A DNA stretch of 64,000 bases from an uncultured Candidatus Saccharibacteria bacterium (GTDB lineage: Bacteria; Patescibacteriota; Minisyncoccia; Phycocordibacterales; UBA9973). The position numbers were made by a program, and so were the translations under genes. Positions 39,071-60,448 of this stretch are shown here, one piece after another (the first letter of the stretch is position 1; each line of letters opens with the position of its first letter). Location of the stretch: NCBI GenBank assembly GCA_964553015.1, contig CAZKJE010000002.1:14175-78174 (forward strand), given 5' to 3'. The notes below the pieces were generated by a model that was not told the origin of the DNA, did not search any database, and was given only the letters and a program-made list of their open reading frames with translations.

Positions 39071-39145
39071 TTGATATTAGTAGCAAAATAGACTTATGAA
39101 ACTACAAGAAGGATAATAGCGTAACTAAACCATAAAGTCAATTTG

Positions 39146-39535
39146 TGGAGATGGGGGAAATTGAATCCCCGTGCAGAAGGTTTTTGCAAAGAAGTCTACA
39201 TGCGTAGCGCGCTTTTTGTTTTAAATTAAAAAATTATGAAACGCGCCAAATATTTTTTAACCGAGTTCTTTTGTTTTGCGAGAGCGTCAGAACAGGCGTT
39301 CAAGCTATCCCGATAATGTTATGCCTCGTCTTATATATCGGAAGTCTATAAGAGAGACACCACCTCAGGCTTACGCGAAAGATGGAGCGAAAGCGAGCGC
39401 ATTACCGAAGTAAGGCGAACGCATTGCTGTGAAAGCTGATTTTGCAATTAGCTGTTGAACGAATTTTTACGAGATTACGTTCATTCTCGGCATGCATCAA
39501 TAACAAATGGCCAACTGTCTATGCCTTGCATCCCC
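39146..39535 (-). ncRNA. ssrA: tmRNA (SsrA)
   Basis: The 5' GGGGATG pairs with the 3' CATCTCC, including the G3:U pair. T-arm GGGGA-TTCAATT-TCCCC, discriminator A, and CCA not encoded. Immediately downstream of smpB. The candidate tag frame ends ...GNALAFAPSFA-TAA, but the resume codon was not determined. Confidence 0.85.
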
Positions 39536-39546
39536 ATATTTACTTT

Positions 39547-39993
39547 TCAACGTCCTTTAAAATCTCGGCGAATCTCGCGATCAGTGTCACGCTTTTTTAG
39601 AGTTTCGCGTTTATCAAATTTTTTCTTGCCTTTCACCAGGGCAATTTCCAATTTGATTTTCCTGCCTTTATTATACACTGAAATCGGCACTATTGTCAAA
39701 CTTTTATTCTTCTCGCTGCCTTGTAGCTCATTAATTTCTTTTTTGGTCAGCAAAAGTTTCCTATTGCGCAGAGGATCATAATCTTTTGGCGCATTTTTTG
39801 CCTGATATGGAGGTATGTTGGCATTGATCAGGTATGCTTCGCCGCCGCGTATAATTACAAAAGCCCCCTCGAGCGACATCTGACCCGTTCGTACAGCTTT
39901 TACTTCTGTTCCCAAAAGCTCAATACCGGTTTCGTGCTTTTCTAGGAATTCATAATTGAATCGCGCTTTGCGGTTTTCTGTATAACTAGCCAT
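39547..39993 (-). CDS. smpB: SsrA-binding protein SmpB
   Basis: 148 aa. NRKARFNYEF N-terminus and a basic C-terminal tail. Confidence 0.95.
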   Translation of the reverse strand: MASYTENRKARFNYEFLEKHETGIELLGTEVKAVRTGQMSLEGAFVIIRGGEAYLINANIPPYQAKNAPKDYDPLRNRKLLLTKKEINELQGSEKNKSLTIVPISVYNKGRKIKLEIALVKGKKKFDKRETLKKRDTDREIRRDFKGR

Positions 39994-41301: not shown

Positions 41302-43230
41302 ATGGATTTAAATTTTCTTAACAATAAAACTGGCGACAAAGGGCGAAAGAAACTTCCGAAGCCGACGAAGTTCAGTGGGAATATTTTAGGCGCGATAATT
41401 TTTTTCATGCTCATCACTGCGCTTTACTTGGTGGTAGCAGGAGACCAAAAAACGGTTCCAGAAATTCCAATTTCCGACCTGGCGCAAAGCGTATCTGCGG
41501 GAGAGGTAAAAAATATTTTAGTTTCCGGAGACAAGCTCACCATCACGTACAAAAACGATCAAGTTAAGACATCCAAGAAAGAAGTGGGCTCGGCGCTGTC
41601 GCAGACACTTTTTAATTATGGGGTGCCGCCGGAAGCACTTGCGCAGACAGAAATAGAAATAAAAAACGAAAGTGGATTTGCGTACTGGCTCGTAAATATT
41701 CTGCCGTTTCTTCTGCCGGTAATTTTTATTCTGTTGTTTTTCTGGTATTTATCACGCCAGGTAAAAGGCGCAGGCATGCAGGCGTTTACTTTCGGACAAT
41801 CCAAGGCCCGCATCACAGATCCGAATGATAAAAATAATAAAGTTACTTTCAAAGACGTGGCCGGAGCCAAAGAAGCGAAGGAAGAATTGAAAGAGATTGT
41901 AGACTTTTTGAAAAGTCCGAAAAAATTTCTGGATATTGGCGCAAGGATTCCAAAAGGTGTAATGCTGACAGGAGCCCCGGGTACAGGAAAGACGCTGCTC
42001 GCTCGCGCTGTAGCAGGCGAGGCCTCCGTGCCGTTCTTTCATTTATCCGGCAGCGAATTCGTGGAAATGTTCGTTGGTGTCGGGGCTTCGCGTGTGCGTG
42101 ACCTATTTAAAATGGCTAAAAAAGCTGCACCGGCCATCATATTCGTGGATGAAATAGACGCTATCGGGCGCACGAGAGGGGGAGGCTTTGGCGGCGGGAA
42201 TGATGAACGCGAGCAAACCTTGAACCAGATTTTGGTGGAGATGGACGGCTTTGAACCGAACGATAAAGTGATAGTCATGGCGGCTACAAACAGGCCGGAC
42301 GTCCTCGATCCGGCGCTCATTCGCCCGGGACGTTTTGATAGAAAAGTAATGATAGATCTTCCGGATCGCGCTGACCGCGAAGAAATTTTAAAAATTCACG
42401 CTGTTAAAAAACCTCTCGCCGAAGATATAAATTTGAAATTAATTGCCGAACGTACACCTGGTTTTTCTGGCGCCGACCTGTATTCGCTCATGAACGAAGG
42501 TGCGATACTCGCCGCACGCGAGAACCGCAAGAAAGTTTTTCAATTTGATCTCATACGCGCGATAGAAAAAGTAATGCTCGGTCCTGAGAGGAAGAGCCAT
42601 TTGCTTTCCAAAAAAGAAAAAGAAATTACTGCGTACCATGAAGCGGGTCATGCGATCGTCGCATCAGTTTTACCTCACGCAGATCCCGTTCATAAAGTTT
42701 CTATCATCTCCCGCGGAAACGCCGGAGGATACACTTTGAAGCTTCCGCTTGAAGAAAGGCGATTGCAATCTAAAAAAGAATTTATAGATGACATTGCGAT
42801 GTCGCTCGGAGGATATGTGGCCGAGCAGATGATGTTCGGAGATATCACGACTGGTCCGTCAAGCGATTTGCAGGCAGCAACAAACATTGCGCGCGCCATG
42901 GTGACGCGCTGGGGCATGTCGGACATTATCGGACCGATAGCCTTGAACGATTCTCCCGGCCGTTCTATGTATGGAGGAGAAACAGTAGAAAAAGAATTTT
43001 CCGAAAGTGTTTCTACTAAAGTAGATGCTGAAGTTTCAAGAATAATTAGTGATGGGCTAAAGTCTGCGCAAATCGTAATTACCGAAAACAAAAAAGCCTT
43101 TGAGGCTATAGCACAAAAACTCATAGAAGTTGAAACCATAGAACAGGAGGAATATGAAAAAATTCTCATAGCGCACGGAATTATCTTAAAAAAGAAAGAA
43201 GTCATAGCTCCACCGGAAGGTACAAAGTAA
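41302..43230 (+). CDS. ftsH: ATP-dependent zinc metalloprotease FtsH
   Basis: Start moved to ATG 41302 (MDLNFLNN...). Two TM segments, Walker [12 protein letters not shown], the SRH region and the HEAGHA zinc site. Confidence 0.95.
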
Positions 43231-43323: not shown

Positions 43324-43998
43324 ATGGCGAGAAAACAAGATAAACAAAGCGTTTTGGCTATGCGCAAGAGAGGAATGAGCTACAGCCAGATCAAAGGGAA
43401 AATAAAAATAAGCAAAAGCACTTTGAGTGTCTGGCTTAAAGATTTACCACTCGATGAAAAACGGATAAGAGAATTAAGAGACAATAGCCCTATTCGTATT
43501 GAAAAATTCAGAAATACAATGCGAGCAAAAAAAGAGATGAGACTTTATGAGGTATATAAAAAAGTCGCAAATGATATTTGTGATCTCTCAAAAAGAGATT
43601 TATTTTTAACAGGCTTGTTCTTATATTGGGGAGAAGGCACGAAATCACAAAATTCTTTAGTTGCCCTCACAAATACAAATCCAGCCATGGTTAAGTTTTT
43701 CATACAATGGCTAAAATTGTTTGGAGTAAAAAGCAAAGATTTGAAAATTAAACTACATTTATACTCCGATATGAAAATTAAAGAAAGTCTTGATTTTTGG
43801 TCAAAAGAGCTTAATATTCCGATAAGCCAGTTTTATAAGCCGTATGTTAAGAAAAATACTCTCAAATCTATCTCGTATAAAAATGGCTTTGGAAAAGGAA
43901 CATGTAGTGTTATATTTGGGAGTAGAGATCTTTGGGAATATATAACAATGGGATTGAAATATATTTCTGAAATTAGTAATGAAAATTTCCGCCCCTAG
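43324..43998 (+). CDS. HTH plus LAGLIDADG-like (homing-endonuclease-like) protein
   Basis: 224 aa. N-terminal resolvase-type HTH (RGMSYSQIKGKIKISKSTLSVWLK). A single LAGLIDADG-like motif (LTGLFLYWGEGTK). The last 10 nt, including the TAG stop, lie inside the tRNA gene. Confidence 0.45.
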   Translation: MARKQDKQSVLAMRKRGMSYSQIKGKIKISKSTLSVWLKDLPLDEKRIRELRDNSPIRIEKFRNTMRAKKEMRLYEVYKKVANDICDLSKRDLFLTGLFLYWGEGTKSQNSLVALTNTNPAMVKFFIQWLKLFGVKSKDLKIKLHLYSDMKIKESLDFWSKELNIPISQFYKPYVKKNTLKSISYKNGFGKGTCSVIFGSRDLWEYITMGLKYISEISNENFRP

Positions 43999-44061
43999 CT
44001 CAGTTGGTAGAGCAATCCGCTTATACCGGATCGGTCCTTGGTTCGAGTCCAAGGGGGCGGA
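43989..44061 (+). tRNA. tRNA-Ile with anticodon UAU
   Basis: Cloverleaf read by hand: acceptor CCGCCCC/GGGGCGG, D-arm GCTC-AGTTGGTA-GAGC, anticodon arm ATCCG-CTTATAC-CGGAT, variable loop CGGTC, T-arm CTTGG-TTCGAGT-CCAAG, discriminator A. CCA is not encoded. Confidence 0.8.
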
Positions 44062-44063
44062 CA

Positions 44064-44624
44064 ATGAAAGATAATTTGAACGAAAAATTAATTTCTGTTC
44101 CCCAACCACCCGTATTCCATACCTCAAGCCGTTTTTTATACGACGAATGGGTGCGCCTGAGTAAGCGTCTGGAAATAGAAGAGTTAAACGAAGAGGAGCG
44201 TGTTATAATAGAACAAAAGAGATCTGCGCTATTTAAAGAATATGAAGTTGCGTCTAATCGTGAGCAAGCCGAACCCGAAGCCATAGGCTTAGAATTTCTA
44301 GAAAACTTGAAATACGCTATTAAACAGAAAGACAAAGCTTTGTTACGAAAAACAATCCTTATGATTCAAGAGTTTGTTAATCGCCCTAACTTTTATAAAG
44401 ATTTAGATTTTATCAGATTTGCTGATGATGAATTAGATAAGATTTTAAATAATCGAATTGCCGCTATTATTGTCGGATCAGGTACTTATGGTCAAAGAAT
44501 TTTGATTTCTTCCAGCCGCTTGCGCATGAGCGGAGATAGACACGGACAGGAGTATAGAAACCGTTTTGCTAAACTTTTCGGTCTCAAATTCGATCCTAAC
44601 ATTGATTTAAGTATTGAATTTTAA
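44064..44624 (+). CDS. Hypothetical protein
   Basis: Start moved to ATG 44064, 3 nt after the tRNA, because the track start lies inside the tRNA. 186 aa with no recognised family. Confidence 0.5.
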   Translation: MKDNLNEKLISVPQPPVFHTSSRFLYDEWVRLSKRLEIEELNEEERVIIEQKRSALFKEYEVASNREQAEPEAIGLEFLENLKYAIKQKDKALLRKTILMIQEFVNRPNFYKDLDFIRFADDELDKILNNRIAAIIVGSGTYGQRILISSSRLRMSGDRHGQEYRNRFAKLFGLKFDPNIDLSIEF

Positions 44625-47749: not shown

Positions 47750-49957
47750 TTACTCGAAGTGAAACTCTCCGGCTTTGGTGCGGACTTTTTGTTTTAGGAG
47801 AGGATATTTACTTAGTTCGGGGTCAGATTCTATCATGCTAATAGCTTCAGTTCTAGCCGCTTCTACCATTTTTATATTTTTTATAGCTTCCATGCCGAGA
47901 TCAGTGATGCCCCACTGCTTTGTACCGCCAAGCTCTCCGGCGCCTCGGAGTGTGAGATCTAGCTCTGCCAATTCAAAACCATTTTTTGCAGTCTTGAGCG
48001 CTTTAAGGCGGTCTACGGTTTTTGCGCTTTTGGCTTCAGCAAAAATATAACAATATGCCTGATGCGAACTTCGGATCACCCGTCCGCGGAGCTGATGCAA
48101 TTGGGCCAATCCAAAACGCTCCGCACCTTCTATGATAATTATTGTCGCATTTGGAACATTCACTCCGACTTCTACCACGGACGTAGCGCATAAGATATGT
48201 ATCTTGCCTTCGGTAAATTCCTGCATTACCTCTTCTTTTTTTTCTCTGCTCATCTTGGAATGAAGTACGCCTATTTCATACTCTTTGAACACTCGCTCTT
48301 TTAATATTTTAGCTTCAGCTACGGCAGATTTTACATTTAAAGCCATTTCTTTTTCAGGATCAGGCTCAAAAATTCGCGGGCAGATGACGTAGAGCTGTCT
48401 ACCGGCCTCCAATTCTTTTCTGATTGCTTCGTAAGTGTTAGTCCTCTTGTCCGGAGTAATAATCTCTGTAATTATTTGTTTTCTTCCTACCGGCATTTCG
48501 TCTAAAAGCGACAGATCCAAATCTCCGTATATCGTGAGCGCGAGCGTGCGGGGGATAGGAGTTGCGGTCATGGATAGCAGGTGCGGAGCGATGTTATCTT
48601 TGCGCACTAACTTTCTTCTTTGTGCTGTGCCGAAGCGATGCTGTTCGTCTATCACCACAAGTGCAAGATTTTTAAATTTAACAGTTTTTTGAATGAGCGC
48701 ATGTGTACCGATAAGTATAGGTATCTCGCCGTTTCCGATCCATTTCAAAAGTTGTGCTCGGGAAATTGTTGTCCAGCTTGCCCCGTCCTTGGCGGGACCG
48801 ATTGTTTTTGATGGAAATTTTCTGCAGCCACTTCCAGTGATCAAGCCTATGTTTATCGGCAAATGCTTGAAATATTCTATGAAAGATTCAAAATGTTGCG
48901 TTGCTAATATTTCTGTCGGCGCCATGTATGCCACTTGCAAATTACCAAAATTTTGTGGTTTACCCTGGGTGTAATCGAAGGGCCTTTGCTGTACTGTCAC
49001 ATAGCTTGCAGTCGCAGCTACAGCAGTTTTACCGGAGCCGACATCGCCTTCGAGTAATCGCGACATCGGAAAATTCTTTGCCAGATCAGCAAGTATCGTT
49101 GCGATGGATTTTTCTTGTGATTTTGTCGGTTTAAAAGGGAAGCGCTTCAGAAATTCTTCTGCACTTTTCTTTTCAGGTTTTATTTGAAAAGATTTATTTT
49201 TTCTATATTCAAATTTATCATGCTGGCGTTCCAGCTGAATACAGAATACTTCTTCAAAAGCGAATCGTTTGCGTGCCGACTGCGCATCGGCTTTATTTTT
49301 CGGTTTGTGTATCCAAATAAGCGCGGTTTTCAGAGTAGGCAAATGATATTTTTTTAAAATTTCGGCCGGAATATAATCTTCAATATTATCCAAAGTTTTT
49401 TCTTTAAATATTTTTTCAATTGCGTGGTAAAACCATTTGGAAGTGATACCTCGCGTCTCCGCATAAATTGGATAAGACAGACCCTCCCCCAACCCCTCCC
49501 TTCGCAGGGCGGGGCTTTTAAATAATGTGTCGTGCGAATCTATCGGCATATTCGGCAATTTTTCAAATTCCGGATTAGCAAGATACATGCCATTTTTGCC
49601 TTGCGTGACTTTGCCCGTCAGCTTCACATTTTCGCCGTCATGGATCATTTTTGCCAAGTAAGTCTGATTGAACCATGTGATTTTTATTTTTCCAGATAAA
49701 TCTTCTATTTCGCCTTCGCCCATGGGCATTTTTGAACGAAATCCTTTTTTGGTTTTCAATTTTGAAACTTTGCCATATACAGTAGCCATATCTCCGGCAA
49801 CTAATTCAGCAATATTCTTTACCTCGCTGATATCGCTGTAGCGGACAGGGAAGTGAAACAAGAGATCAGCCACAGAAAAAATCTTGAGCTTATGCAAAGC
49901 CCTTTTCTGGCTTTCATCCAGCCTGAATTTTAGTTCAAGCTTATCGCTTAAATTCAT
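47750..49957 (-). CDS. recG: ATP-dependent DNA helicase RecG
   Basis: Start moved to ATG 49957, because the track extension overlaps the pilin gene. Wedge domain and helicase motifs GDVGSGKT and VIDEQHRFG. Contains an in-frame GC element at 49481..49516. Confidence 0.9.
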   Translation of the reverse strand: MNLSDKLELKFRLDESQKRALHKLKIFSVADLLFHFPVRYSDISEVKNIAELVAGDMATVYGKVSKLKTKKGFRSKMPMGEGEIEDLSGKIKITWFNQTYLAKMIHDGENVKLTGKVTQGKNGMYLANPEFEKLPNMPIDSHDTLFKSPALRREGLGEGLSYPIYAETRGITSKWFYHAIEKIFKEKTLDNIEDYIPAEILKKYHLPTLKTALIWIHKPKNKADAQSARKRFAFEEVFCIQLERQHDKFEYRKNKSFQIKPEKKSAEEFLKRFPFKPTKSQEKSIATILADLAKNFPMSRLLEGDVGSGKTAVAATASYVTVQQRPFDYTQGKPQNFGNLQVAYMAPTEILATQHFESFIEYFKHLPINIGLITGSGCRKFPSKTIGPAKDGASWTTISRAQLLKWIGNGEIPILIGTHALIQKTVKFKNLALVVIDEQHRFGTAQRRKLVRKDNIAPHLLSMTATPIPRTLALTIYGDLDLSLLDEMPVGRKQIITEIITPDKRTNTYEAIRKELEAGRQLYVICPRIFEPDPEKEMALNVKSAVAEAKILKERVFKEYEIGVLHSKMSREKKEEVMQEFTEGKIHILCATSVVEVGVNVPNATIIIIEGAERFGLAQLHQLRGRVIRSSHQAYCYIFAEAKSAKTVDRLKALKTAKNGFELAELDLTLRGAGELGGTKQWGITDLGMEAIKNIKMVEAARTEAISMIESDPELSKYPLLKQKVRTKAGEFHFE
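49481..49516. repeat. GC-rich palindromic element, in frame in recG, opposite orientation to the carB copy
   Basis: CCCCTCCC-TTCGCA-GGGCGGGG (49493..49514) with a CCCTCCCCCAA leader. Read on the minus strand as SPALRREGLGEGL. Confidence 0.7.
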
Positions 49958-56947: not shown

Positions 56948-59900
56948 ATGCAGAAGCATGAAAACAATAACTCCAAATCAGAAGCAGCTTTGCGCGAAGA
57001 GCGAGTTTTGGAATTTTGGAAAGAAAATAAGATATTTAAAAAGTCGCTGGAGAAAAAATCCCCAAAGGGAGAATTTGTGTTTTATGATGGTCCAGTTACG
57101 GCAAACTCAAAGCCAGTTTTGCATACAATGCTACCTTTTTCTTTCAAAGATGTTATTCCCAGATATAAAACTATGCGCGGATATCATGTACGAAGGAAAG
57201 GCGGTTGGGATACGCATGGGCTTCCGGTAGAACTGCAAATAGAAAAAAAACTTGGGTTCAATTCAAAAGCAGATATTGAAAATTATGGTATTGCAGCTTT
57301 CAATAAATTATGTAAGGACAGTGTTTGGGAGTACGTTGGGGCATGGAAAAGTTTTACCGAACGAATGGGCTACTGGGCAGATCAAGATAATGCATATGTC
57401 ACATATTATAATAATTATATTGAATCTGTTTGGAATATAGTAAAAAAAATAAATGAGCAGAATCTGCTTTATAAAGATTACAAAGTGGTGCCGTGGTGCC
57501 CGAGGTGCGGTACAGCACTGTCTTCGCATGAGCTCGCACAGGGATACGAAGATGTAAAAGATCTGTCAGTGTATGTAAAGTTTAAGATAACTACGCCAGT
57601 GCAGGAAAATTCTGCCGCTTTACCCGCAAGCGGGCTCCGACACGGACAAAATTTTCCCGCATTGGCTCCGCAGTATATCCTCGCCTGGACGACGACGCCG
57701 TGGACCCTGCCCGGGAACGTTGCCTTAGCCGTCGGCGAAAATATTGATTATGTAAAGGTAAAGAGTGGAGAAGAGTTTTATATTCTCGCCAAAGAGAAGC
57801 TTTCAATCATAACCGAACCATATGAGATAGTGGAAGAGGTCAAGGGCGCGGGGCTAGTAGGGCTCGAATACGAGCCGTTGTATCCATATCTTGCAAATAC
57901 GGTTTCGGATACAGAAAAACCAAAATTAGAAAAGGCATACAAGGTGCACAAGGCAAACTTTGTGACCACAGATGACGGCACCGGCGTGGTGCATACGGCT
58001 GTGATGTATGGGCAAGATGACTTTATGCTCGGAACAGAAGTCGGCCTGCCGAAGCACCACCTCGTAGGTCTCGATGGCAAATTTTTAGCAGGCACAGGTA
58101 TTTTTGAAGGACGATTTGTAAAAGATGAAGAAGTCGCCGTAGATATCATTAAAGACTTGGCGCACCGCGGGCTTCTTTTCAAAAAAGAAAAATACGAGCA
58201 CTCGTATCCGCACTGCTGGCGCTGTAAAACTCCGCTCATATATTACGCGCGGGATTCTTGGTATATCCGGATGTCTGATCCTAGAATAAAAGCCGAAATG
58301 ATAAAGGAGAATAAAGAAATAAACTGGGAGCCGGAGCATATTCGCGACGGGCGGTTTGGGCAGTGGCTGGAAGAAATAAAAGACTGGGCAATATCCCGCG
58401 AACGGTACTGGGGCACGCCGCTGCCGGTCTGGGCCTGCGAAGCGTGTAAAAAAATTGAAGTAGTAGGAAGCGTAGAAGATCTAAAAAGTAGAACCAAAAA
58501 GTCTGGCAATAAATATTTTGTGATGCGGCACGGCGAGGCTGTCGATAACGCCAAGCATTTGGGTGATCCGAAAGGCGATCCAAATAATCACCTGACTGAT
58601 AAAGGGAAAAAAGAAATAATTCTTACCGCAGAAGAATTAAAAAATAAAAAAATTGATTTTATCTTTACGTCTTCTTTTCTGCGAACCAAAGAAACAGCAG
58701 AGGTCTTGAGAAAAGAACTAGGTTTGGAGCAAGAAAAAGTAATAGTTGAAGATAGATTGCATGAACACAATGAGGGAGACACTAAGCTCGTTCGCAAAAG
58801 GATGGCCGACTTTATTTATGAAATAGAAAAAAATTACGAAAATAAAAATATCTTAATAATTTCGCACGGAAATCCTATCTGGATCCTGCAGAAAACCGCT
58901 TTGGGCTTGTCTATAAATAATTTTACAGAAGGCGAGATGCTGCATACCGGCGAAGTCAAAGAATTAGATTTTATACCGCTACCGCATAATGAAAATTATG
59001 AGCTTGATCTGCACAAGCCTTATATAGATGAAATAAATCTTGTTTGTTCATGTGGTGGAAAATTAACACGCACGAAAGAAGTCATGGACGTGTGGTTTGA
59101 TTCGGGAGGCATGTCTTTTGCGCAGGATCATTACCCTTTCGATAACGCTTCCGGTAAATCTTTTGACGGCAAAGAACTTTTATATCCGGCGGATTTTATT
59201 TCAGAGGGCATAGATCAGACGCGCGGATGGTTTTACACCTTGCATGCTGTTGGAATTCTCTTGGGGCGGGGCAAGGCTTACAAAAACGTAATCTGCCTTG
59301 GCCATCTTCTCGACGCTAAGGGCAAAAAAATGTCCAAATCTCTCGGCAACGTCGTCGAGCCGTTTCTTGCGATGGATACATATGGCGTGGATACTTTGCG
59401 TTTGTGGATGTATTCCATAAATCAGCCGGGCGAATCCAAGAATTTTGATGAGAAAACAGTAGCGCTTCTTTCTCAGCAGATTTTTGGCTTGCTTTACAAT
59501 GTGCTTGCGTTTTATGAACTTTATCGCGATGTTTCGCTAGAGCCTAGAGCCTATGGCCTAAAGCCCAGCAATATTTTAGATAAATGGATCTTGGCGCGTC
59601 TAGATGAGTTGACAGAGCTTGCAACCAAAAATTTAGATAACTACAAATTGCTGGAGCCAGTGCGGGGCATGAGAGACTTTATCGGCGATCTTTCTACTTG
59701 GTATTTGCGCCGTTCGCGCGACAGGATAAAATCCTCCTCCGCACAAGGCTCCGGTGGAACAAGGGAAGGAGATGAAGCGAAGGAAACTCTGTACTATGTG
59801 CTAAAAACCTTGGCAAAACTCATGGCTCCGCTCGCGCCGTTTGCCGCTGAAGACATCTGGCTTAAGTTAAAAAATGAAGATGATGAAGAAAGCGTGCATT

Positions 59901-60448
59901 TGGCGAGCTGGCCGGAAGTAAAAAAGACATCTTTTATCTCCAAGTTGCTTAAAAATGATCCAAGCAAAAAAATAATTGAAAATATGGAGAGCGTCAGAAG
60001 AGTAGTCACACTCGGACTCGAAGCTCGACAGAAAACCGGAATAAAAGTCCGCCAGCCTCTTAATCAATTACGAATTAAAAATTACGAATTAGGAATTGAG
60101 TATGCAGACTTGATTAGAGAAGAGCTGAATGTCAGAGAAGTTATTTTTGATAATTCTATTGAAGGCGAGGTGTGGCTCGATATAAGAATAAACGAAGAGC
60201 TCAAAGCTGAAGGGGATTACAGGGAGTTTGTCCGCGCGCTGCAGGATATGAGAAAGAAAACCGGACTGACGCCGAGCGACGTGGTCTCTGTTACTTTTGA
60301 AACAAACAAAGCAGGCAAGGAACTTATTAAAAAATTCGAAGCTGAAATGAAAAAAACAGTGCTTGTCTCTACGATAGAATTTTCGGAAAATGAAGGAGAA
60401 AAAATAAAAATCGACAATCTTCACTTCAGGATAAAAATTGATAAATAA
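56948..60448 (+). CDS. ileS: Isoleucine--tRNA ligase with a nested histidine-phosphatase domain
   Basis: 1166 aa. IleRS hallmarks: WDTHGLPVE, editing-domain [10 protein letters not shown] and [13 protein letters not shown], KMSKS. An extra domain of about 163 aa lies at residues 522-684. Confidence 0.9.
   Translation: [1166 protein letters not shown]
58511..58999 (+). other. Histidine-phosphatase (PGAM-like) domain inserted within ileS
   Basis: Ordered motifs [43 protein letters not shown] and LIISHGNPI. Flanked by IleRS CxxC (ACEACKK) and CxC (VCSCGG) segments. Confidence 0.75.

Follow-up and report, generated by a model that had tools for sequence, protein, structure and literature searches.

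An AUA-reading tRNA-Ile(UAU) shared by a branch of CPR bacteria and overlapped by a probable free-standing homing-endonuclease-like gene

The DNA stretch analysed here (64 000 nucleotides in all, hereafter the window) carries at positions 43989-44061 a genuine isoleucine tRNA with an AUA-reading anticodon. This AUA-reading tRNA-Ile(UAU) is a trait common to a whole branch of ultra-small (CPR) bacteria. The open reading frame (ORF) of 224 amino acids whose 3' end runs into the tRNA gene is probably a free-standing homing-endonuclease-like gene. The account that we favour, and regard as rather probable, combines a functional, vertically transmitted tRNA-Ile(UAU) that decodes AUA with a selfish HTH + LAGLIDADG-like insertion, of which the overlap is a by-product. 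The relevant features are the following.

39143..39993, - strand: tmRNA (39143-39535; Rfam tmRNA, 119.6 bits) and smpB (39547-39993; Pfam SmpB, 2e-51)
41302..43230, + strand: ftsH, conserved on the left side of the tRNA locus (ORF and translation; near the tRNA in 47 of 80 genome loci)
43324..43998, + strand: 224-aa ORF with HTH and LAGLIDADG-like domains, probably a free-standing homing-endonuclease-like gene
43954..43982, + strand: promoter-like TTGAAA-17 nt-TAATGA within the last 13 codons of that ORF (alignment of alleles with and without the ORF)
43989..44061, + strand: tRNA-Ile(UAU), 73 nt, CCA not encoded (ARAGORN, Rfam, cloverleaf minimum free energy fold, 75 genome loci with the same architecture)
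43996..43998, + strand: TAG, both the ORF stop codon and U8-A9-G10 of the tRNA (sequence)
44022..44024, + strand: anticodon T-A-T (U34 A35 U36) in the loop CTTATAC, 44020-44026 (sequence, ARAGORN position 34)
44064..44624, + strand: 186-aa ORF of unknown function, starting two bases past A73 (ORF list)
47750..49957, - strand: recG, which in relatives is conserved on the right side of the tRNA locus (47 of 80 loci)
56948..60448, + strand: isoleucyl-tRNA synthetase (IleRS), type 2, the presumed charging enzyme (Pfam)

ARAGORN predicts a single tRNA in the window, tRNA-Ile(tat), at 43989..44062 on the + strand. The Rfam family RF00005 matches 43989..44061 with 65.7 bits (gathering score 29; E = 4.7e-12), over the full length and with no non-canonical pair, which places the gene in that family. 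The minimum free energy structure is the cloverleaf (z = -2.4 against shuffled sequences). The acceptor stem CCGCCCC/GGGGCGG begins with C1:G72; it is followed by the D arm GCTC-AGTTGGTA-GAGC, the anticodon stem ATCCG/CGGAT and the loop C32-U33-U34-A35-U36-A37-C38, and the discriminator base is A73 at 44061. The pairs C2:G71, C4:G69, C5:G68, U12:A23 and C29:G41 can also be read from the sequence. The preliminary description of this DNA, folded by hand, had proposed a UAU anticodon and a C1:G72 pair and called for a tRNA predictor to be run: ARAGORN gives the same anticodon, Rfam the same 43989-44061 span, and both agree with the sequence.

The identity set of the Escherichia coli IleRS reportedly comprises A73, C4:G69, U12:A23, C29:G41 and A37, together with A38 and G34 or lysidine-34. 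The first five are all present in the window tRNA (5/5); the last two are not, as it has C38 and U34. The A38 and G34/lysidine-34 rules derive from type 1 IleRS; the window enzyme is of type 2.

The same 73-nt architecture is found in 75 genome loci, and the stems show many compensatory changes; for example, pair 7:66 is GC, TA or AT and pair 30:40 is AT, GC or CG. G72 is present in 75/75 of these tRNAs, which were retrieved with a search pattern that fixed C1 and not G72, and A73 in 74/75. Among the identity elements, U12:A23 occurs in 75 relatives, C4:G69 in 67 and C29:G41 in 39. The loop CUUAUAC is found in 75 of 80 genome loci, and U34 is invariant across more than 150 sampled tRNA genes. 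A scan for C1 combined with UAU gave at least 120 matches; among the matches listed, almost all are from Patescibacteria. In an unbiased sample, chosen through the protein of the adjoining ORF, 26 of the 77 tRNAs have C1:G72, all 26 of them with C38, and the remainder have G1:C72. A C1:G72 pair extending to all CPR bacteria was considered and rejected, G1:C72 being the majority form in this sample. C1:G72, C2:G71 and C38 are instead a signature of one clade, with a G1:C72 version in other CPR lineages. The pair that had been called unusual is thus real, but it is a clade trait and not a peculiarity of one genome. Nor does the idea of tRNA-Ile(UAU) as an uncommon one-off hold, since both the scan for C1 + UAU and the comparison with CPR loci find the gene in many Patescibacteria. 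In the literature, we found no report on tRNA-Ile(UAU) in CPR bacteria, and a paper on tRNA introns of Patescibacteria does not cover the subject; bacterial tRNA-Ile(UAU) is still presented as a few rare cases in reviews and primary papers up to 2026.

The tRNA gene belongs to an ftsH-tRNA-recG locus conserved across CPR bacteria of the Nomurabacteria/Paceibacteria type. Upstream of ftsH are a 170-aa ORF, smpB and the tmRNA gene, and not tilS-hpt; the usual tilS-hpt-ftsH neighbourhood is missing here, as had been pointed out. Between the tRNA and recG, the window contains an unknown ORF, a class II ribonucleotide reductase (RNR) and a cobalamin adenosyltransferase. The unknown ORF is the 186-aa one. 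It had been described as starting 3 nt after the tRNA, and its ATG at 44064 is indeed the third base past A73. Its own frame scores best of the six by codon usage; it has no match in Pfam, NCBIfam or PHROGs and no homologue among the 80 related genome loci. Its tblastn matches were discarded as artefacts, arising from translation of the tRNA itself.

We consider it extremely unlikely that the tRNA, instead of being a core component of translation, is a pseudogene or cargo carried by a mobile element or prophage. Viral contigs do commonly carry tRNA(UAU) genes with the same D arm, and a serine recombinase adjoins the tRNA in one relative (locus L174). Against this stand the high Rfam score and perfect cloverleaf, the conserved chromosomal synteny between ftsH and recG, covariation under purifying selection, and the neighbourhood of the tRNA in the window, which has no phage genes.

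The codon usage of the window is in keeping with a functional AUA decoder. AUA accounts for 548 of the 1371 isoleucine codons (40%), or 31.5 per 1000 codons, and is as frequent as AUU; the high AUA class starts at 10 per 1000 codons, and Borrelia reaches 39 (PMC12514573). The ATA codons of ftsH, recG and the RNR gene align in orthologues with ATT/ATC (49%), ATA (17%) and ATG (1.5%), and the window ATT/ATC codons have the same profile. Since AUA is aligned with ATT/ATC in relatives, these alignments indicate that it stands for isoleucine in this organism. Reassignment of AUA to methionine was rejected, given the 1.5% of alignments with ATG. The examination of AUA usage that had been suggested earlier thus finds the codon heavily used, with the meaning Ile.

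Charging is presumably carried out by a eukaryote-like IleRS of type 2 whose gene lies 13 kb away; an ileS gene had been reported at that distance, and it is located at 56948..60448. According to Pfam, the protein consists of the class I core, Anticodon_1 and a C-terminal DUF5915, and the zinc-binding domain is missing. A histidine-phosphatase domain is inserted at about residues 524-700; the same insert is found in other Patescibacteria IleRS fragments. In Mycoplasma mobile, tRNA-Ile2(UAU) reads AUA without lysidine, and Arg865, located in the zinc-binding domain, is the adaptation of the type 1 IleRS (Taniguchi et al. 2013, PMC3575796). The window resembles this system in having a genomic tRNA-Ile gene with a TAT anticodon, the hallmark of tilS-independent AUA decoding (Taniguchi 2013), and no tilS nearby. 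The IleRS co-adaptation suggested earlier on the M. mobile model is not matched: the window enzyme is of type 2 and has no zinc-binding domain, and the M. mobile-type change (type 1 IleRS with Trp -> Arg/Lys in the zinc domain) is not found in it. M. mobile is also a single species, whereas the tRNA of the window type spans a large clade.

Bifidobacterium and Neorickettsia are closer in this respect; they are tilS-less and have tRNA-Ile(TAT) with a eukaryote-type IleRS (PMC3575796). In the window too, the UAU tRNA is paired with a type 2 IleRS. However, AUA usage is far higher here (40% of Ile codons), the acceptor stem begins with C1:G72 and the IleRS has the histidine-phosphatase insert. The absence of tilS reported here refers to the window and the flanks of the locus. 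In eukaryotes, the cytoplasmic tRNA-Ile(UAU) has a pseudouridine-A-pseudouridine anticodon, G1 and an intron, and is pseudouridylation-dependent. It shares with the window tRNA a UAU anticodon encoded in the gene and charging, presumed here, by an enzyme of the IleRS2 lineage; eukaryotic genes have G1, the window tRNA C1.

The motif SGGxDS of the PP-loop has no match in any frame of the window, nor was an SGGxDS/PP-loop ORF (tilS) found among the 80 related genome loci; ftsH is included in 47 of these and smpB in 20. The absence of tilS and tRNA-Ile2(CAU) applies to the window and to some 1 Mb of sequence flanking this locus. That tilS does not adjoin ftsH, as noted before, holds in the window and in about 47 related loci containing ftsH. 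The supplements of two CPR comparative-genomics papers gave no tilS (K04075) or lysidine entry. The tRNA might nevertheless be redundant, in a genome that also has TilS and tRNA-Ile2(CAU) and in which the UAU tRNA merely supplements AUA decoding. We think this rather unlikely, although our view is limited to 64 kb of the genome and TilS does stand beside FtsH in at least one Patescibacterium, the cultured Saccharibacterium Southlakia (Southlakia tables). The two decoding systems together represent a transition stage, and some bacteria carry both LAU and UAU decoders (PMC3575796). The missing PP-loop ORF (window and 80 genome loci) speaks against redundancy, as do the 31.5 AUA per 1000 codons, which demand an abundant decoder, and the invariance of U34 in more than 150 sampled genes. 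According to our preferred reading, 43989-44061 would be a functional, vertically inherited tRNA-Ile that decodes AUA with an unedited UAU anticodon; we infer both its role as the sole AUA decoder and the modification state of U34. tRNA-Ile(UAU) is the norm in a large CPR block in which AUA is as common as AUU. Such a block offers a species-rich natural system for studying the discrimination of AUA from AUG without lysidine, the roles of C1:G72 and C38, and the reading of U34 by a type 2 IleRS.

The ORF located at 43324..43998 would be foreign to this decoding system: a single-gene insertion belonging to a large HTH + LAGLIDADG-like family whose 3' end is pressed against a tRNA gene. Its HTH is N-terminal (about residues 2-40); a long helix leads from there to a LAGLIDADG-like domain at the C-terminus (about 90-221), in which the motif reads LFLTGLFLYWGEGTK. 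The family motif is LxGLxLYWGEGxK; its GEG (E104, G105) is shared by all of 14 members, the most distant of them 26% identical to the window protein, and among 71 members G105 is invariant and E104 at least 90% conserved. The motif is thus of the LAGLIDADG form, a helix ending in a conserved acidic residue followed by Gly. Searches of PDB profiles, NCBIfam and PHROGs with the ORF returned HTH matches only, and Pfam gave no LAGLIDADG match. For the C-terminal domain, hhalign found no match to I-CreI, and Foldseek against the PDB found only generic alpha/beta sandwiches. WhiA is a top structural match. Nuclease activity and homing by the ORF product are putative.

The family comprises about 2700 clusters (50% identity, E <= 1e-10), so far annotated solely as 'helix-turn-helix domain-containing protein'. 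In all 77 metagenome relatives with downstream sequence, a tRNA-Ile(UAU) lies -30 to +70 nt from the ORF end, independently of nearby ftsH or recG. In this protein-based sample, ftsH and recG are often missing, replaced by tRNA clusters or located on the other side (L280). An association of the ORF with ftsH and not with the tRNA was therefore rejected, the tRNA being always adjacent. Remote members adjoin tRNA-Val(UAC), Gln(UUG) (twice), Pro(CGG), Cys(GCA) and Gly(GCC); one (P0197) has no tRNA within 760 nt. In the literature, we found nothing on LAGLIDADG genes flanking tRNA genes.

The distribution of the ORF is that of a selfish element: the site is fixed and adjoins a conserved target, occurrence is sporadic and incongruent with the host, and some copies are degenerate. 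Of the 80 genome loci, 20 contain the ORF; about 75% of the species with the same tRNA, including close relatives, do not have it, and in close ORF-less relatives the ftsH-tRNA gap is 76-350 nt and contains a promoter-like motif. Hosts with FtsH 95% identical carry ORFs merely 43-44% identical, while in some pairs ORF identity (82%) exceeds FtsH identity (73%); the Spearman correlation between the two is 0.44. Degenerate-looking copies are found in L175 and, with N-terminal stops, in L146 and L198. The tRNA of an ORF carrier can be identical in sequence to that of an ORF-less locus (L187 versus L132), so a cut site wholly inside the tRNA would not protect ORF carriers.

WhiA, an HTH + LAGLIDADG protein, can be a non-cleaving regulator and has lost its catalytic residues. 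On this precedent, the ORF could encode a domesticated, non-cleaving DNA-binding protein that regulates transcription of the adjacent tRNA. This seems unlikely to us in view of the absence of the ORF from about 75% of the species with the same tRNA, its incongruence with the FtsH phylogeny of the hosts, the at least 90% conservation of the acidic residue of the motif (as against WhiA) and the presence of an unrelated GIY-YIG nuclease gene at the same site in L199. The ORF product and WhiA have the same two domain types, but in reverse order; the ORF product has one LAGLIDADG-like domain instead of two, and the distribution of WhiA is universal, that of the ORF family sporadic. The ORF is most likely to be a selfish element of the free-standing homing-endonuclease type, for which the tRNA gene and its flank would be a conserved landing site.

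The ORF ends ...TTC CGC CCC TAG, and its last 10 nt (43989-43998), including the TAG, lie inside the tRNA. This overlap, already reported for the window, is confirmed from the sequence, but it is no isolated case: 7 of 15 same-strand genome loci (the window counted) and about 22 of 67 same-strand metagenome loci show it, because the gene family sits against tRNA genes. The TAG overlap of the window is also found in L128, L137, L146, L149, L181 and L198, and the GIY-YIG ORF of L199 ends on the same TAG. For the 75 related genome tRNAs, U8-A9-G10 was a fixed part of the search pattern; among the 77 metagenome tRNAs, a few differ at position 9 or 10. In most members of the family, either the stop precedes the tRNA by 4-63 nt or the ORF is on the opposite strand, so the family does not require the overlap. 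The overlapped tail varies in sequence among members and is the lowest-scoring part of the models (residues 221-224 have a mean pLDDT of 42 in one model and 78 in another). ORF-less relatives have TTTGCR-17 nt-TAGTAT just upstream of the tRNA, at the position matching the element at 43954..43982, which may be the tRNA promoter; a consensus promoter and terminator scan around the tRNA gave nothing above chance.

Were the ORF and the tRNA to share a transcript, RNase P would cut off the ORF stop codon, and tmRNA-SmpB rescue would act on the truncated mRNA; here, too, we infer how the two genes are transcribed. The overlap could then be functional, RNase P cutting at +1 to yield a non-stop mRNA whose product is tagged through tmRNA-SmpB, so that the nuclease is kept low. 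The geometry fits, with the stop codon at tRNA positions 8-10; tmRNA and smpB are present, and about a third to half of the same-strand family members have the arrangement. We nonetheless judge a functional overlap quite improbable, since most members stop 4-63 nt upstream or face the opposite strand, the tail is variable and the lowest-scoring part of the models, and a promoter-like element for the tRNA lies within the 3' end of the ORF. In the preferred reading, the reading frame of one subfamily would have drifted over the tRNA promoter and the first 7 nt of the tRNA, up to the first in-frame stop, the TAG provided by U8-A9-G10. The overlap would thus have arisen incidentally, through insertion and genome compaction, and would leave the ORF with a dispensable tail of 3-8 residues.

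A wider proposal is possible, which we put forward tentatively and do not hold to be the likelier outcome. The HTH + LAGLIDADG-like family would consist of free-standing homing elements specialised for tRNAs, each subfamily with one tRNA boundary (Ile-UAU in CPR bacteria; Val-UAC, Gln-UUG, Pro, Cys and Gly elsewhere) and many borrowing the U8-A9-G10 stop. The CPR subfamily would mark a lysidine-independent AUA decoder which, with a type 2 IleRS, makes AUA a major codon across much of the radiation. Separately, the ORF that overlaps the tRNA brings to light thousands of proteins that form an unannotated family linked to tRNA genes. Should they be nucleases, they would make up a new class of free-standing homing elements and provide scaffolds for the recognition of long DNA sites; they would also be a repeated reason why annotated ORFs run into tRNA genes.

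Two known groups of homing endonucleases can be compared with the family. SegB of phage T4 sits in a tRNA gene cluster. Like the T4 seg and mob genes, which encode free-standing homing endonucleases (PMC2988022), the ORF is a single intergenic nuclease-like gene next to a presumed conserved target and is inherited sporadically; the T4 enzymes, which are phage-encoded, belong to the GIY-YIG or HNH type, whereas the ORF family is LAGLIDADG-like, chromosomal and found in many bacterial lineages. I-ShaI and similar enzymes are single-domain LAGLIDADG homing endonucleases of CPR rRNA insertion sequences (Tsurumaki et al. 2024, PMC11270868). The ORF family shares with them one LAGLIDADG-type domain, an expected homodimer, CPR hosts and highly conserved RNA genes as (here putative) targets. 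The I-ShaI type lies within rRNA introns or insertion sequences and matches Pfam LAGLIDADG_1/2, whereas the ORF family is free-standing beside tRNA genes, has an additional N-terminal HTH and is missed by Pfam, NCBIfam and PHROGs.

ARAGORN predicts one tRNA only in the 64-kb window, a tRNA-Ile with anticodon tat at 43989..44062. The Rfam tRNA model places it at 43989..44061 (65.7 bits, gathering score 29, E = 4.7e-12), with the full model covered and zero non-canonical pairs, and the cloverleaf is also the minimum-free-energy fold. The canonical cloverleaf with anticodon UAU, folded by hand in the preliminary description, is thus confirmed, and its C1:G72 pair is read directly from the acceptor stem.

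Elements of the tRNA, read from the sequence, and features of its locus
Acceptor stem: CCGCCCC/GGGGCGG, giving C1:G72
D arm: GCTC-AGTTGGTA-GAGC
Anticodon stem: ATCCG/CGGAT
Anticodon loop: C-U-U-A-U-A-C, with U34-A35-U36 at 44022-44024
T arm: CTTGG-TTCGAGT-CCAAG
Discriminator: A73; CCA not encoded
41302..43230 (+): ftsH
43324..43998 (+): ORF of 224 aa, upstream of the tRNA
44064: ATG start of the downstream ORF
47750..49957 (-): recG
56948..60448 (+): IleRS

Of the isoleucine identity elements in the E. coli rules, the tRNA has A73, C4:G69, U12:A23, C29:G41 and A37 but not A38. The upstream ORF ends in ...TTC CGC CCC TAG; its final 10 nt lie inside the tRNA, where U8-A9-G10 serves as the ORF's stop codon. 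This overlap, like the start of the next ORF just after the tRNA, had been noted before; all of the earlier factual statements on the locus are correct, and the interpretation as a whole is partly supported.

Relatives were sought with the pattern C-N6-TAGCTCAGNNGGTAGAGC-N6-CTTATA, using one genome per GTDB species (at least 120 rows). ARAGORN finds tRNA-Ile(tat) in all 80 genome loci among the matches listed, about 70 of them from Patescibacteria/CPR MAGs (Nomura-, Kaiser-, Paceibacteria, 'Parcubacteria' and others), and 75 of the 80 have the loop CUUAUAC. These 75 listed tRNAs all carry G72, the pattern having fixed C1 only; C2:G71 occurs in 71, C4:G69 in 67, C5:G68 in 62 and A73 in 74. Double (compensatory) changes are numerous in their acceptor, anticodon and T stems, as is typical of a functional RNA under selection. 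The pattern demanded C1, so the generality of this base was read from a second sample of 77 tRNA-Ile(UAU) genes, reached via the neighbouring protein and hence blind to the tRNA sequence. C1:G72 is present in 26 of the 77, all 26 with C38; the remainder are nearly all G1:C72, with A38, C38 or U38. On this distribution, C1:G72 with C38 is the derived mark of one sub-lineage. The best matches of the window FtsH, among those listed, are Nomurabacteria/'Parcubacteria' MAGs (84-92% identity). The gene, like the C1:G72 pair described earlier as unusual, is thus a trait of the clade and not peculiar to this genome. Genes for tRNA(UAU) with C1:G72 also occur outside CPR (e.g. CGGGAAA...TTTCCCG-A), in a Bacteroidales MAG (L140), Streptomyces (L134, L165) and viral contigs (L010, L014, L035, L054 and others); the ARAGORN start of some of them is off by one base.

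The window tRNA is a new member of an established class, in which tRNA-Ile(UAU) decodes AUA without lysidine. A simple longest-ORF gene call gives 44 window ORFs of 140 aa or more, in which AUA accounts for 548 of 1371 Ile codons (40%), or 31.5 per 1000 codons, the same as AUU; a survey of AUA usage counts more than 10 per 1000 as 'high' and gives 39 for Borrelia (PMC12514573). The codon assigned to this tRNA in the preliminary description is thus heavily used, and it aligns like other isoleucine codons: ATA codons of FtsH, RecG and RNR face ATT/ATC in 49%, ATA in 17% and ATG in 1.5% of cases in orthologues, and the profile of window ATT/ATC codons is no different. This profile rules out reassignment of AUA. 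The same 44 ORFs stop at TGA (1), TAA (32) and TAG (11); code 11 appears to hold, because genes stay long though the gene call took TGA as a stop.

By its Pfam domains (class I core, Anticodon_1, C-terminal DUF5915), the IleRS is assigned to the type 2 (archaeal/eukaryote-like) architecture, which is without a zinc-binding domain. Co-adaptation as in Mycoplasma mobile, named earlier as the studied case, cannot apply here: in that species a Trp to Arg change alters the zinc-binding domain of IleRS (PMC3575796), whereas the window enzyme does not have that domain. Bifidobacterium and Neorickettsia, which are without tilS and combine tRNA-Ile(TAT) with a eukaryote-type IleRS (PMC3575796), are the fitting precedent, sharing both the UAU gene and the enzyme type with the window. 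Residues ~524-700 of the IleRS (window 58517-59050) form a complete phosphoglycerate-mutase-like histidine-phosphatase domain (His_Phos_1), between the CxxC knuckle and the LDLHKPYID segment. tRNA-synt_1 and His_Phos_1 occur together in ~20 other Patescibacteria protein clusters; these are often short ORFs on long contigs, which suggests that the gene may be split at the insert.

The reported lack of tilS-hpt upstream of ftsH holds, no PP-loop motif being found in any frame of the window. The 80 genome loci among the matches listed have none either, all frames included; in 20 of them smpB, not tilS-hpt, lies upstream of ftsH. In the cultured Saccharibacterium Southlakia epibionticum, TilS (SEML1_0730) lies directly upstream of FtsH (SEML1_0729), and the gene tables have one entry named tRNA-Ile; both AUA systems therefore exist within Patescibacteria. 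From these locus-level data, the UAU system probably replaced lysidine in Paceibacteria-type lineages. That the two coexist there, as the Southlakia TilS beside FtsH might suggest, is less likely, with no PP-loop motif in the window or in the genome loci listed. The literature searched discusses neither the phylogenetic scale of tRNA-Ile(UAU) here, nor the very high AUA usage alongside it, nor the C1:G72 and C38 signature.

Among the matches listed, ftsH is near the tRNA in 47 of 80 genome loci, and recG likewise in 47. Two layouts occur, ftsH> tRNA> <recG as in the window and ftsH> <tRNA <recG, so part of the clade has the tRNA alone in reverse orientation, with ftsH and recG conserved on either side (e.g. 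L123, L126, L127, L151 and L155). Both are found with and without the extra ORF. ORF-less relatives have an ftsH-tRNA gap of 76-170 nt with a conserved promoter-like TTTGCR-17 nt-T(G)TAGTAT ~10 nt ahead of the tRNA. In L142 and L169 the FtsH match falls into two blocks ~1.3 kb apart inside one continuous ORF (1104 aa in L142); the break, near residue 335, looks like an intein or other in-frame insertion.

Pfam detects in the ORF an N-terminal HTH and a sub-threshold LAGLIDADG_3 (residues 94-141); NCBIfam and PHROGs matched the HTH and nothing further. The family is large: at E <= 1e-5 the 90%-identity clusters yield 1596 homologues, which go by the names 'hypothetical' or 'helix-turn-helix domain-containing protein', and 4920 50%-identity clusters match at E <= 1e-3 (2713 at E <= 1e-10). 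Structural matches of the ORF model are I-Tsp061I (6.8), WhiA (6.7 and 6.6), I-DmoI (6.6), E-DreI (6.4), PI-PfuI (6.4), I-CeuI (6.3) and I-Vdi141I (5.9), ranked identically with an earlier, weaker model. The first helix of the C-terminal domain contains the motif LFLTGLFLYWGEGTK, whose Glu-Gly never varies in 14 members, the most distant of which shares 26% identity with the window protein; across 71 members Gly105 is invariant and Glu104 at least 90% conserved. Against a LAGLIDADG assignment, Foldseek gave no significant match, hhalign gave none to I-CreI, and the predicted order of strands departs from the textbook one. On balance, the C-terminal domain is probably LAGLIDADG-like. LAGLIDADG-type homing genes are known; this family, which Pfam, NCBIfam and PHROGs capture only as HTH, differs in that its genes stand alone, encode a fused HTH and are linked to tRNA genes, and no description of such a family was found in the literature searched.

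The tie to tRNA genes is close. In 77 of 80 metagenome loci collected via the protein, tRNA-Ile(UAU) lies within -30 to +70 nt of the ORF 3' end; in the remaining three the sequence runs on for at most 62 nt past the ORF. Linkage is maintained down to 45% protein identity, in loci that lack ftsH or recG or have a tRNA cluster in their place, and in L280, where ftsH is on the other side. The tRNA is on the same strand, its 5' end adjoining the ORF, in 67 metagenome loci and inverted in 10. The ORF stop is the tRNA TAG at positions 8-10 in ~22 of these 67 and in 7 of 15 same-strand genome loci among the matches listed, window included, and otherwise lies 4-63 nt upstream of the tRNA. With the tRNA inverted, it is 0-5 nt from the tRNA 3' end in 8 of 10 metagenome loci and 4 of 6 genome loci among the matches listed. 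Remote members adjoin other tRNAs; for one, no tRNA was found within 760 nt.

tRNA neighbours of remote superfamily members
tRNA-Val(UAC): opposite strand, 44-nt overlap
tRNA-Gln(UUG), two cases: glmU-prs locus, actinobacterial-type (taxon inferred from gene order)
tRNA-Pro(CGG): 1 nt beyond the stop
tRNA-Cys(GCA): 1 nt beyond the stop
tRNA-Gly(GCC): 15-nt overlap
tRNA-Pro(UGG): 15 nt upstream of the start of P0216, whose contig ends at the ORF 3' end

Members of 504-560 aa with two or three HTH/LAGLIDADG-like units (L325 3001-4683, L328 2501-4015) precede tRNA-Gln(UUG) by 39-44 nt; their neighbourhood of TetR, desaturase, glmU and prs genes is typical of Actinobacteria. The tRNA-Cys(GCA) directly 3' of the member in L330 (2680-2764) is 85 nt, an unusual length for a tRNA-Cys; 44 nt beyond it comes a second tRNA-Cys, of normal size (74 nt).

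The main rival reading, that the ORF encodes a WhiA-like regulator, is unlikely, given its distribution. Among the matches listed, only 20 of 80 genome loci have the ORF, and close relatives lack it, L158 for one (FtsH 92% identical to that of the window); alleles with and without it differ by this single gene alone. Its identities are incongruent with those of FtsH (overall rank correlation 0.44): between L127 and both L126 and L155 FtsH is 95% identical and the ORFs only 43-44%, and in some pairs ORF identity (82%) exceeds FtsH identity (73%). Some copies in the genome loci are truncated. In L199 (Ca. Nomurabacteria Ike-150m-34) an unrelated 83-aa GIY-YIG gene (1774-2025, Pfam 1.1e-14) takes the ORF's place directly upstream of tRNA-Ile(UAU) and stops on the same U8-A9-G10 TAG. 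L174 has a 487-aa large serine recombinase (Resolvase, Recombinase, Zn_ribbon_recom) on the opposite strand, 61..1524 nt from the tRNA start, which converges on the tRNA 3' end and overlaps the tRNA; this suggests an integrative element with the tRNA as attachment site. All of this fits a free-standing homing-endonuclease-type element, for which the tRNA boundary would be the site. A puzzle is that tRNAs of identical sequence are found both with the ORF and without it (L187 versus L132); carriers would be immune only if the recognition site reaches into the flank that the insertion replaced.

The last 13 ORF codons overlie the position of the putative tRNA promoter of ORF-less relatives; TTGAAA (43954-59) and TAATGA (43977-82), with a 17-nt spacer, align with their TTTGCR-17 nt-TAGTAT. 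Close homologues end earlier in this stretch (TAA at -11 in L138, at -6 in L187), and the tail is the lowest-scoring part of both models (last-block mean pLDDT 42 and 78). The overlap is most simply read as loss of the original stop by drift, the next stop in frame being the tRNA U8-A9-G10. It is possible that ORF and tRNA are co-transcribed and that RNase P makes a non-stop message for tmRNA-SmpB, which the window encodes (39143-39993), but stop drift explains the arrangement without this route. The tmRNA itself (39143-39535, 119.6 bits), with smpB directly beside it, has a large unaligned insertion of ~36 nt around the tag reading frame.
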